NCBI GenBank assembly: GCA_964536985.1
Contig: CAZIBG010000001.1
Span: 49,017 to 113,016 of the forward strand
Length of the DNA stretch: 64,000 nt
From: an uncultured Candidatus Saccharibacteria bacterium
GTDB taxonomy: Bacteria; Patescibacteriota; Saccharimonadia; Saccharimonadales; AWTP1-31
Direction of reading: 5' to 3'
A program made the translations under genes and the position numbers. Shown here one piece after another: positions 43,129 to 56,514 of the stretch. The notes under the pieces are model-generated. The model ran no database searches. It saw only the letters and a program-made list of their open reading frames with translations, and was not told the origin of the DNA. Position 1 is the first letter of the stretch, and each line of letters opens with the position of its first letter.

Positions 43129-43144
43129 CTATCGGTTACTAAAA

Positions 43145-43180
43145 ACAGTCAGAATGTTACGTTCTGGCTGTTTTCTTTTA
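43145..43180 (+). terminator. intrinsic terminator after rpmE2
   Basis: ACAGTCAGAA-tgttacg-TTCTGGCTGT (10 bp, one G-U) followed by TTTCTTTTAT. Confidence 0.7.
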
Positions 43181-53543: not shown

Positions 53544-53766
53544 CTTTTCTCCTTACGTTTTCTATAAAATAGAAAAATCCCTTTTTAGACACTGGAATCC
53601 GCGTGAGCGGACGGTACCATCCAGTTTCTAAAAAGGAATTCTTTTTAGCTCTTATTTATCGCTATTACGGGCTGCCCGGTCGGTTCTACTTGGAATTTCT
53701 CCCGTTCTATCGACTGCCTTCGTGGTTGATAGCCACTCATCTACTTAACGCAGAATGCATTTGTAA
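53544..53766 (-). promoter_or_regulatory. T-box riboswitch leader (tRNA-sensing), probable Ile specificity
   Basis: Minus strand has GAUGAG; hairpin GUGG[CUAUCAA]CCAC (53722-53736); a Stem-III-like hairpin (53628-53648); and discriminator ACUGGA[UGGUACC]GUCCGC-UCAC-GCGGAU-UCCAGU (53591-53625), followed by a U-rich tract and the SD. Confidence 0.75.
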
Positions 53767-54941: not shown

Positions 54942-55733
54942 ATGACTACCGAAGAACTTACGCTCACTTCCTATCTAATCAACGTTGGATTATCTAAGAA
55001 TGCCGCGAAGTCATACGTTATCCTTTATAAGCTAGGTCCTGCCTCGGCATTACAGCTGTGTCGTAAAACGGGGCTAAGCAGAACTCAGACATATCGTTGT
55101 CTGGAAGAGTTAGAAATTCAAGCACTTGTAAGCTCCGAGCAACTTTCGTACGGAACCATCTACACTGCTCTTCCGCTCTCCGAAATCGAAGGCCTGTTAT
55201 CTTCCAGAGAAGCGGAAACCGCCAAACTCAAGAACAACCTCGGCTCGATGGTAGCATTAGCCCAAAGCTACATTGGTGCTGGAAAGTCGGATGAGGTAAA
55301 GGTTAGACATTACTACGGCATTGCAGGTATTAAACAGGTGAACTGGAATCTTACTCGTGCCGAGAAAGAATACTTTGTGCTTGAGATGTCACACGTAACA
55401 GATCACTTTGATCAAACTTTTGGCAAGCGCTACCGAGAACGAATGCTAGAGCGCGGGATCATCTCTCATGATCTAACCAACTCAACGGCAGTGACCTATG
55501 AGGAACTCGCTCCAGCAGATTTAACAAAAGTCCACTATCGACATATAGACCCTAAAATCCTGGCCATCAACTACGAAATGTACATCTATAACGATGTCGT
55601 TACCCTTATCGATTACGATATCGACGCTAGCTGGGCGATAGAAATACACCACGCTGGGCTCAACACCATGATGCGCCAGATATATACTGCCCTGTGGTCA
55701 CTGGGCAAGCCGATCAAGATATCTGATCGGTAG
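54942..55733 (+). CDS. TrmB-like winged-helix transcriptional regulator (paralog 1)
   Basis: N-terminal wHTH (LSKNAAKSYVILYKLGPASALQLCRKTGLSRTQTYRCLEELE) plus a ~150-aa C-terminal domain shared with the next two genes. Confidence 0.7.
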   Translation: MTTEELTLTSYLINVGLSKNAAKSYVILYKLGPASALQLCRKTGLSRTQTYRCLEELEIQALVSSEQLSYGTIYTALPLSEIEGLLSSREAETAKLKNNLGSMVALAQSYIGAGKSDEVKVRHYYGIAGIKQVNWNLTRAEKEYFVLEMSHVTDHFDQTFGKRYRERMLERGIISHDLTNSTAVTYEELAPADLTKVHYRHIDPKILAINYEMYIYNDVVTLIDYDIDASWAIEIHHAGLNTMMRQIYTALWSLGKPIKISDR

Positions 55734-56514
55734 TGATTTGTTGGGCCTGGTTCCAGAGCAGATCGAAGACCTGCACCTGCTGATCTGCCATATTCTGATT
55801 GTAGATCTCAACGCCCAATATGTCGCCGGCTTCGTAGTTAAACAACGCCACGCAGTTGTTGTATATTGTCATCTCAAAGGCGATCTTGAATACCTCCGGT
55901 GAGATGTACCGTATGTTGAAGTATTTCTTATCCCATACCGATTTGGCTTCTTCACCTCGTTGGGGGTTGTTGGTAAGGTCATAACTAGTGATCTTATTAT
56001 CAATTTGTCGATCATAAAACTTATTATCAAAGTGTTGGCCTAGGTGCCCCGTTAATCGGCTAAGTTCGAAGGTCCGGTACTCGCCCTTTGCCTTCCCTAC
56101 ATTCCAGTTCATCTGCTTTAAACCGTCGACTCCATGGTATTCAATTATCTTTGAGCTTGTGGGGGCATTTAGCTGCATCCCTTTTAGGGCATTAGTAACA
56201 GATCCGAGGCTAGTTCGTAATTGTTCTGCTTTACTCTCGTGTTCGCTTACCAAGAATTCCAACACTTCAGGACGTTGGGCCTCGTATGTCTGGCCGTAAT
56301 GTCGCTCCCGAATTGTTATCAATTGCTTAGCGGCCAGCTTCTCCAGTACGGGATACAGTTTGGTGCGTCCTGTCTTGAGGCCTCTACTAATTGCCAGTAC
56401 AGACTGTCCCCCATTTTGTAGCAGAAATATGTAGATCTGTGCTTCTAATCCATCAAGCCCGAGATGCTTAAGATACCCGATCACCTTTTTCTGGACTTCA
56501 ATACTCTGCTTCAT
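55714..56514 (-). CDS. TrmB-like winged-helix transcriptional regulator (paralog 2)
   Basis: LDGLEAQIYIFLLQNGGQSVLAISRGLKTGRTKLYPVLEKLA. The C-terminal domain aligns with paralog 1 (GLKQMNWN.., DLTNN, IYNNCVAL). 3' ends overlap by 20 nt. Confidence 0.7.
   Translation of the reverse strand: MKQSIEVQKKVIGYLKHLGLDGLEAQIYIFLLQNGGQSVLAISRGLKTGRTKLYPVLEKLAAKQLITIRERHYGQTYEAQRPEVLEFLVSEHESKAEQLRTSLGSVTNALKGMQLNAPTSSKIIEYHGVDGLKQMNWNVGKAKGEYRTFELSRLTGHLGQHFDNKFYDRQIDNKITSYDLTNNPQRGEEAKSVWDKKYFNIRYISPEVFKIAFEMTIYNNCVALFNYEAGDILGVEIYNQNMADQQVQVFDLLWNQAQQITTDQIS

Follow-up and report, generated by a model that had tools for sequence, protein, structure and literature searches.

An isoleucine T-box leader upstream of the GNAT-ileS operon

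The DNA analysed here is a 64-kb window of contig CAZIBG010000001.1, and all coordinates refer to this window. On its minus strand, a T-box leader of about 200 nt (53764-53563, from Stem I to the terminator U-tract), delimited by an Rfam match and by homologs, precedes the two-gene operon that it would regulate (53543-50012). The first open reading frame (ORF) of the operon (53543-52992, 183 aa) has a Shine-Dalgarno (SD) sequence AAGGAG at 53554-53549 and an ATG at 53543-53541 according to the ORF list. It encodes a GNAT acetyltransferase with the Pfam domain Acetyltransf_1 and overlaps by 11 nt the start of ileS (53002-50012), whose product, the isoleucyl-tRNA synthetase (IleRS, 996 aa), contains the Pfam domains tRNA-synt_1 and Anticodon_1. 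Because the N-terminus of IleRS shares up to 80% identity with proteins of Candidatus Saccharibacteria metagenome-assembled genomes, the window was assigned to a genome of Saccharibacteria (TM7, Patescibacteria/candidate phyla radiation, CPR). From the sequence analysis described below, the leader is probably a transcription-attenuating Ile T-box of the GNAT-ileS operon with a rewired expression platform, in which the terminator would contest Stem III and not the antiterminator helices A1 and A2.

Homologous leaders were collected from the best 80 Saccharibacteria ileS loci by nhmmer with the leader and by a covariance model (CM) of its 3' domain. One homologous leader was found upstream of ileS in 77 of the 80 loci, and at least two of the three loci without a leader (L022 and L041) have almost no upstream sequence. 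The gene ileS follows the leader directly in 50 of the 77 homologs, and a small ORF intervenes in the other 27. In the 64-kb window the T-box is present as a single copy, as found with covariance model R1.

The leader matches the Rfam T-box model RF00230 from end to end at 53764-53590 in E-value mode (35.6 bits, E 3.8e-6), below the gathering score of 93. At the gathering score, no Rfam match was found anywhere in the 64 kb, and the RF00230 gathering score was reached by none of the 20 homologous loci tested (scored loci listed: L001-L020, L035, L045, L064 and L075). The shortfall is mainly due to the shortening of Stem I, in which 89 model positions are reduced to 35 nt. Stem I is thus ultrashort and has no distal platform, most of it being absent relative to the Rfam model.

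What remains of Stem I (53752-53722) is a hairpin with AUC in a 7-nt apical loop and UGA...GA on the flanks. The specifier hairpin GUGG-CUAUCAA-CCAC (53736-53722), recognised from the sequence and the homologs, presents the Ile codon AUC at 53730-53728 followed by A at 53727, so that an AUC codon plus purine stands in a leader with ileS downstream. In 72 of the 77 homologs a 4-bp stem likewise closes a 7-nt NNAUCNN loop, and this stem covaries (GCGG/CCGC, GCGA/UCGC, AUGG/CCAU and others). A variable extra hairpin, UUCUGC-GUUAA-GUAGA, lies immediately 5' of the specifier hairpin. This layout may be that of the 'ultrashort' Stem I of actinobacteria or a separate one of three helices. Alignment to the Rfam T-box model places Stem II, with GAA...AGUAGAA S-turn-like motifs, at 53714-53679 and the Stem IIA/B region at 53678-53660. 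The Stem II motifs GGAAGAA and AGUAGAAC are conserved among the homologs; the Stem IIA/B pseudoknot and the S-turn geometry are putative.

The discriminator region begins with the purine string AAGAG (RRRxG) at 53653-53649, 5' of Stem III, with at least 90% conservation at A9, G10 and G12 of the alignment. Together, AAGAG, Stem III and the AA of the linker span 53653-53626, and the linker reads AAA, AAG or AAT in 74 of 77 leaders. The classical antiterminator follows at 53625-53591. It consists of A1 (53625-53620 with 53596-53591, 6 bp), the 7-nt bulge UGGUACC (53619-53613), A2 (53612-53607 with 53602-53597) and the loop UCAC, and it is contained in both conformers described below. The UGGN of the bulge stands directly 3' of A1. 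Among 76 distinct sequences, A1 is 100% paired and A2 93-94% paired, and both helices covary. The bulge reads TGGTACC in 69 of the 77 leaders. In other leaders it reads UGGCACC (L046, L078), UGGAACC (L021, L026), UGGUAAC (L039, L043, L068) or UGGUAUC (L030), and these variants alter either the fourth base, which is the partner of the tRNA discriminator base, or the ACC part. The A2 helix is closed by a G-U wobble (G53612-U53597); this position is most often G-U (35 of 76 sequences) and otherwise UA, AU or GC.

Taken on its sequence features, the element is an Ile-specific T-box of Candidatus Saccharibacteria with the specifier AUC, because the RF00230 match, the UGGUACC bulge, the AUC specifier upstream of ileS, the A2 wobble and the RRRxG-Stem III-AA anatomy are all found together.

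Stem III and the lower stem of the putative terminator share one strand

Stem III (53648-53628) is an 8-bp helix of CUAAAAAG (53648-53641) and CUUUUUAG (53635-53628) closed by the loop AAUUC (53640-53636), with a predicted energy of -6.2 kcal/mol, and it would be the helix of the ON state. A second copy of CUAAAAAG lies at 53588-53581 and is a downstream partner of CUUUUUAG. With this partner the pairing extends to 15 contiguous bp between GAAUUCCUUUUUAGA (53641-53627) and UCUAAAAAGGGAUUU (53589-53575), including the two G-U pairs G53641-U53575 and U53637-G53579. The 5' strand of this lower stem comprises the last nucleotide of the Stem III 5' strand, the loop, the 3' strand and the first linker A. 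An A53626-G53590 mismatch separates the lower stem from A1, and the lower stem encloses the intact A1 and A2. It is abutted by the U-tract UUUUUCUAUUUUAUA (53577-53563), which includes UUCUAUUUUAUA at 53574-53563.

The sequence-only reading had described an 8-mer with two perfect partners, one giving Stem III and the other a 15-bp helix that runs into a U-tract, and every coordinate and pairing of this description proved to be exact. The 8-mer copies and the 8-bp Stem III were also recovered by a repeat search, together with a 24-nt inverted repeat of 88% complementarity. The full 15 bp are present in the window; however, the innermost pair A53627-U53589 is conserved in only 24 of 75 sequences, so the conserved lower stem is about 14 bp long and lies beyond a small internal loop.

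When the region 53770-53540 was folded without constraints, the minimum free energy (MFE) structure contained the lower stem with A1 and A2 (-64.1 kcal/mol, z -3.8), and none of 200 shuffles was as good. The energies of the two conformers that the sequence-only reading had set against each other were compared. In the window, the OFF conformer (lower stem, A1 and A2) reaches -34.4 kcal/mol versus -22.0 kcal/mol for the ON conformer (Stem III, A1 and A2), and the family median of the OFF-ON difference is -14.2 kcal/mol. In per-sequence folds, the overlap between Stem III and the lower stem has a median of 8 nt and amounts to at least 6 nt in 67 of the 77 leaders. Since the Stem III 3' strand is common to both, the two helices are mutually exclusive. 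Stem III is an element of the predicted MFE structure until the transcript 3' end reaches 53583, and the flip to the lower stem occurs at 53582. For direct refolding, the computed barrier was 1.8 kcal/mol for the window, with a family median of 3.5 kcal/mol. Barriers as low as these would make branch migration easy, so that the default outcome would be OFF.

Both helices are conserved in related leaders

The covariation of the lower stem was counted on a plain MAFFT alignment that had not been fitted to any structure. Compensatory changes were found in 13 of the 15 pairs, and 87% of the alignment cells were paired, versus 34-55% when the partner strand was slid by 1-3 columns; none of 500 column shuffles reached the observed values. 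RNAalifold independently predicts the enclosing helix together with A1 and A2. The duplex energy of the lower stem has a median of -15.6 kcal/mol when each leader is paired with its own tail versus -8.5 kcal/mol with tails of foreign genomes, the own tail being better in 76 of 77 cases, and at least 8 enclosing bp are found in 77 of 77 leaders. The family has two main lower-stem subgroups, one pairing GAAUCUCUUUUUAG with CUAAAAAGGGAUU and the other pairing AAUCACUUCUUUUGG with CUAAAAGAAGUGAUU, and much of the lower-stem covariation arises because these subgroups differ there.

The 5' strand of Stem III was misaligned between the subgroups by MAFFT, and its covariation was therefore counted on the CM-fitted alignment, where 8 of 8 pairs show changes on both sides and 98% of the cells are paired; this is a weaker test than that of the lower stem. 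The arrangement is far beyond chance, because it recurs in 77 homologous leaders with compensatory changes. The exchange of Stem III and the lower stem on a shared strand, as proposed by the sequence-only reading, is thus borne out as far as the helices go, both being conserved, covarying and overlapping, and we infer the role of tRNA, the step in which docking blocks invasion and termination itself.

The enclosing hairpin has the geometry of an intrinsic terminator

Runs of at least 4 T begin 0 nt past the last paired base in 71 of the 77 leaders and 1 nt past it in 5 more (76 of 77), and in the homologs T makes up at least 6 of the 10 nt that follow the stem. In the window, the hairpin of -34.4 kcal/mol is followed by UUUUUCUAUUUU. 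The predicted geometry is that of an intrinsic terminator and not that of an SD sequestrator. A perfect 8-bp hairpin, UUUUCUAU-UUU-AUAGAAAA, was also noticed at 53558-53576 on the minus strand, where it overlaps the U-tract; no counterpart was seen in the homologs.

The terminator of canonical T-boxes takes its 5' strand from the 3' strands of A1 and A2, and the antiterminator is destroyed in the OFF state (PMC7583486). A terminator of this kind was looked for by folding each leader with pairing allowed only for the tail and the 3' half of the antiterminator. It was never more stable than the antiterminator (0 of 77 leaders), the medians being -3.8 versus -13.2 kcal/mol. Control T-boxes were taken from a pattern scan of IMG/VR, in which 71 loci were found, 13 of them with a T-run and 5 confirmed by Rfam, and only those 5 were used. 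With the same script, all 5 controls gave a canonical terminator of -16 to -25 kcal/mol versus an antiterminator of -6 to -9 kcal/mol, with 7-12 canonical pairs and no enclosing pairs. The class I platform, in which the A1/A2 3' strands form the terminator 5' strand, is thus not the one found in these leaders.

The sequence-only reading had stated that no canonical downstream complement exists. This was too strict, since GGAUUCC (53600-53594) can pair with GGGAUUU (53580-53574) over 7 bp with three G-U pairs; the statement holds in substance, since this pairing gives only -3.9 kcal/mol versus -15.8 kcal/mol for A1 and A2. The candidate was rejected, and it is not conserved across the subgroups, being present in the window and in the GGGAUUUUU subgroup and absent from the AAGUGAUUUUU subgroup. 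If this pairing with the U-tract were the real terminator of a canonical T-box, the long helix would be incidental, which is very improbable: in none of the 77 leaders is the canonical pairing more stable than the antiterminator, and an incidental helix is at odds with the strong covariation of the lower stem. Besides the pairing in the window and its subgroup, the canonical reading can draw on three divergent homologs, L064, L035 and L038, which have a respectable 10-bp hairpin of the canonical type.

In these three leaders (L064:2808-2899, L035:2885-2983 and L038:2875-2972), only UCCC-like nucleotides are found between the purine string and A1. They carry both an enclosing helix of 6-9 bp and the 10-bp canonical-type terminator formed from the A2/A1 3' strands, and they may be intermediates between the canonical and the nested wiring.

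The SD sequence lies outside the helix in most leaders

A separate SD sequence and start codon were found in 73 of the 77 loci, at a median of 27 nt past the start of the T-run. In equilibrium ensembles of full-length leaders, the SD has a mean unpaired probability of 0.59. Systematic sequestration of the SD was sought across the leaders and was not found, so a class II platform is not indicated, with the exception of L067. The sequence-only reading had named a conserved SD-sequestering helix, the mark of a translational T-box, as an outcome that would refute it, and this outcome was not observed.

A translational or dual T-box is nonetheless conceivable. The purine-rich 3' strand of the lower stem (AAAAAGGGA, and AAGAGGUGA in relatives) would then be an SD or an SD mimic, the pyrimidine-rich Stem III strand would be an anti-SD-like sequestrator and the U-run would be an AU-rich spacer. 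The SD-like 3' strand speaks for such a function, as does the architecture of ultrashort Stem I, Stem II and IIA/B, which is typical of actinobacterial ileS T-boxes of the translational kind. In many relatives, the 5' strand (GAUCACCUUU and AAUCACUUCUUUU, also GATCACCTTT and AATCACTTCTTTT) presumably resembles the 3' end of 16S rRNA, and it was counted on the same side. The clearest case is L067 (L067:2341-2445), in which the ATG of the downstream ORF lies 5 nt into the U-run (GAGGTGTTTTTATG) without any other SD; in this leader the lower stem could, from its sequence, also act as an SD sequestrator. For the family as a whole, however, a translational or dual function is quite unlikely. In the window and in 73 of the 77 relatives a real SD and start codon stand outside the helix, the SD cores are on average 59% unpaired, and the composition of a spacer alone does not explain a U-run that begins 0-1 nt from the end of the stem in 76 of the 77 leaders.

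Proposed switch between Stem III and the lower stem

For the transcriptional reading, the following course of events is proposed. During transcription, Stem III would fold before A1, the bulge and A2. The 15 nt that emerge next (53589-53575) can pair with the loop and 3' strand of Stem III and with the first linker A. When tRNA is absent or charged, Stem III would be free, and the nascent 3' strand would displace the 5' strand of Stem III by branch migration. A1 would thereby be extended downward into a single long hairpin of lower stem, A1 and A2 that ends at the U-tract, where RNA polymerase would terminate. When uncharged tRNA-Ile is present, its anticodon would pair with the AUC specifier and its 3'-ACCA with the UGGU of the bulge. 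The RRRxG...AA string flanking Stem III would dock on the tRNA-bulge duplex, and Stem III would stay closed and stacked until the polymerase has cleared the U-tract.

The functional anti-terminator is thus most likely Stem III, with A1 and A2 predicted to be uncontested, unlike those of canonical T-boxes. In the canonical model, the aminoacyl group helps to shear helix A1, and stacking of the tRNA 3' end stabilises A1 against the terminator, whereas A1 would never be sheared in the Saccharibacteria leader. The RRRxG-Stem III-AA purine string is part of the discriminator and is indispensable for binding of the tRNA 3' end (Li et al. 2019 as reviewed in PMC7583486), and the antiterminator by itself, without Stem III, barely binds tRNA (PMC7583486). 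In the M. tuberculosis ileS T-box, a charged-tRNA mimic causes the linker to undock and Stem III to move off the antisequestrator (PMC12647780). The docking of the purine string and the protection of Stem III are plausible because of the reports in PMC7583486 and PMC12647780.

The same helices can be arranged in another way. The nested hairpin might form with or without tRNA as a closing helix under A1, and regulation would then work otherwise: a tRNA bound to the bulge might kink or delay the hairpin so that the terminator fails, or the hairpin might attenuate or stabilise constitutively, and Stem III would act only in the early, co-transcriptional capture of tRNA. Since both conformers keep A1, the bulge and A2 intact, the bulge might in principle be open to pairing with the tRNA 3' end even in the long hairpin. 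Such a closing helix would also suit the known structures, in which Stem III stacks beside A1 when tRNA is bound, and the divergent homologs that have no Stem III and keep the enclosing helix. However, Stem III is dismantled when the lower stem forms, and the RRRxG...AA string, reported to be indispensable for binding of the tRNA 3' end, is thereby unhooked. At least 67 of the 77 leaders show conservation and covariation of Stem III with its flanking motif, in exact overlap with the terminator strand, which is typical of competing structures, and a hairpin that abuts the U-run in both states would leave no ON state. The closing-helix arrangement is unlikely on these grounds.

Several observations weigh against the exchange of Stem III and the terminator as the basis of regulation. 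The covariation of Stem III was counted on an alignment fitted to the structure of Stem III, and the per-sequence shuffle scores of this helix are modest (median z -1.9; within the best 5% in 41 of 77 leaders), because its strands are A/U-rich. Three to five divergent homologs (L064, L035, L038 and others) have no Stem III hairpin and keep a short enclosing helix, so the Stem III competitor is not universal. The lower stem is AU-rich, with few G-C pairs beside the U-tract, and in L067 its 3' strand is the only SD-like sequence. According to the published view, transcriptional T-boxes generally need a long Stem I with elbow contact, and Stem I of the present leader is ultrashort. In a generic terminator scan of 60 kb, intrinsic terminators were not enriched over shuffles; the lack of enrichment makes such a scan uninformative either way on terminator usage in this genome. 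Classical A-tract/stem/U-tract sites nonetheless exist in the window, for example at 43142-43174 and 57463-57430.

Comparison with known T-boxes and riboswitches

The leader resembles class I transcriptional T-boxes (B. subtilis glyQS and tyrS; RF00230) in being the leader of an aminoacyl-tRNA synthetase gene with a specifier codon, in its 7-nt UGGN bulge, in A1/A2 with a G-U wobble at the base of A2, and in a Stem III flanked by RRRxG...AA. The more stable hairpin with its U-tract is the presumed OFF state in both. In contrast to class I, the terminator 5' strand in Saccharibacteria would be the loop and 3' strand of Stem III, and A1/A2 would be retained at the terminator tip; Stem I is ultrashort without a distal platform, and the score is 35.6 bits versus the gathering score of 93.

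Translational ileS T-boxes of actinobacteria (Mycobacterium tuberculosis, M. smegmatis and Nocardia farcinica; class II, TBDB) have in common with the leader the gene ileS, the AUC specifier, a short Stem I without elbow platform, a Stem II with S-turn-like motifs, the IIA/B region and Stem III with the discriminator. The actinobacterial elements switch between the antisequestrator and an SD-sequestering helix, with a large rearrangement of the antisequestrator. Unlike this helix, the alternative helix of Saccharibacteria ends at a U-tract, leaves the SD free and does not unfold A1/A2.

In some metabolite riboswitches, the terminator invades a ligand-stabilised aptamer helix by strand displacement, with one strand shared between the two. 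The logic of a shared strand, and of fast branch migration as the default (refolding barrier of 1.8-3.5 kcal/mol here), would be the same in the Saccharibacteria leader. The leader differs in that its ligand would be a tRNA, that the contested Stem III would be a peripheral latch and not the closing helix, and that the rest of the sensor would join the terminator hairpin.

In the literature searched, no T-box was found to be described in Saccharibacteria, Patescibacteria, TM7 or CPR, although two key older papers lay outside the search and an earlier description is possible. In the literature on T-boxes, Stem III and terminators, only the canonical arrangement was found, and a wiring that competes with Stem III was not, which accords with the suggestion of the sequence-only reading that the variant is undescribed. 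Whether the leaders of Saccharibacteria represent a third T-box expression platform appears evenly balanced. This platform would be a nested terminator or 'Stem III switch', in which the antiterminator helices are constitutive and aminoacylation is signalled to RNA polymerase only by docking of Stem III, together with the purine string, which would protect Stem III from strand invasion. It would be transcriptional despite an ultrashort Stem I without elbow contact, and it would be the first T-box lineage described in CPR.

Current models of T-boxes place the switch in A1. A lineage in which A1/A2 are uncontested would isolate the contribution of Stem III and the purine latch, which was recognised only in 2019, and this contribution would become directly testable by mutation. 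Sensing of tRNA by riboswitches would be extended to the ultra-small, host-dependent CPR bacteria, and the requirement of a long Stem I for transcriptional T-boxes would be questioned. Because the leaders score below the Rfam gathering threshold, threshold-based annotation would miss the lineage. The compact design of about 200 nt may also be of use for engineering tRNA-responsive terminators.

Promoter and neighbouring genes

Directly 5' of the leader, a putative promoter-like site, TTGAGA-17-TATAGT, was found at 53800-53772 on the minus strand by a consensus scan (10 of 12 matches), and TATAAT-like boxes were also found just 5' of the homologous leaders. A tRNA-Ile gene was sought for its anticodon and discriminator base, and no tRNA gene was found by ARAGORN in the 64-kb window or in the 60 loci scanned. 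Upstream of the leader, two convergent paralogous ORFs are located at 54942-55733 on the plus strand and at 55714-56514 on the minus strand. Each of them has a TrmB-family winged-helix domain, and their 3' ends overlap by 20 nt.

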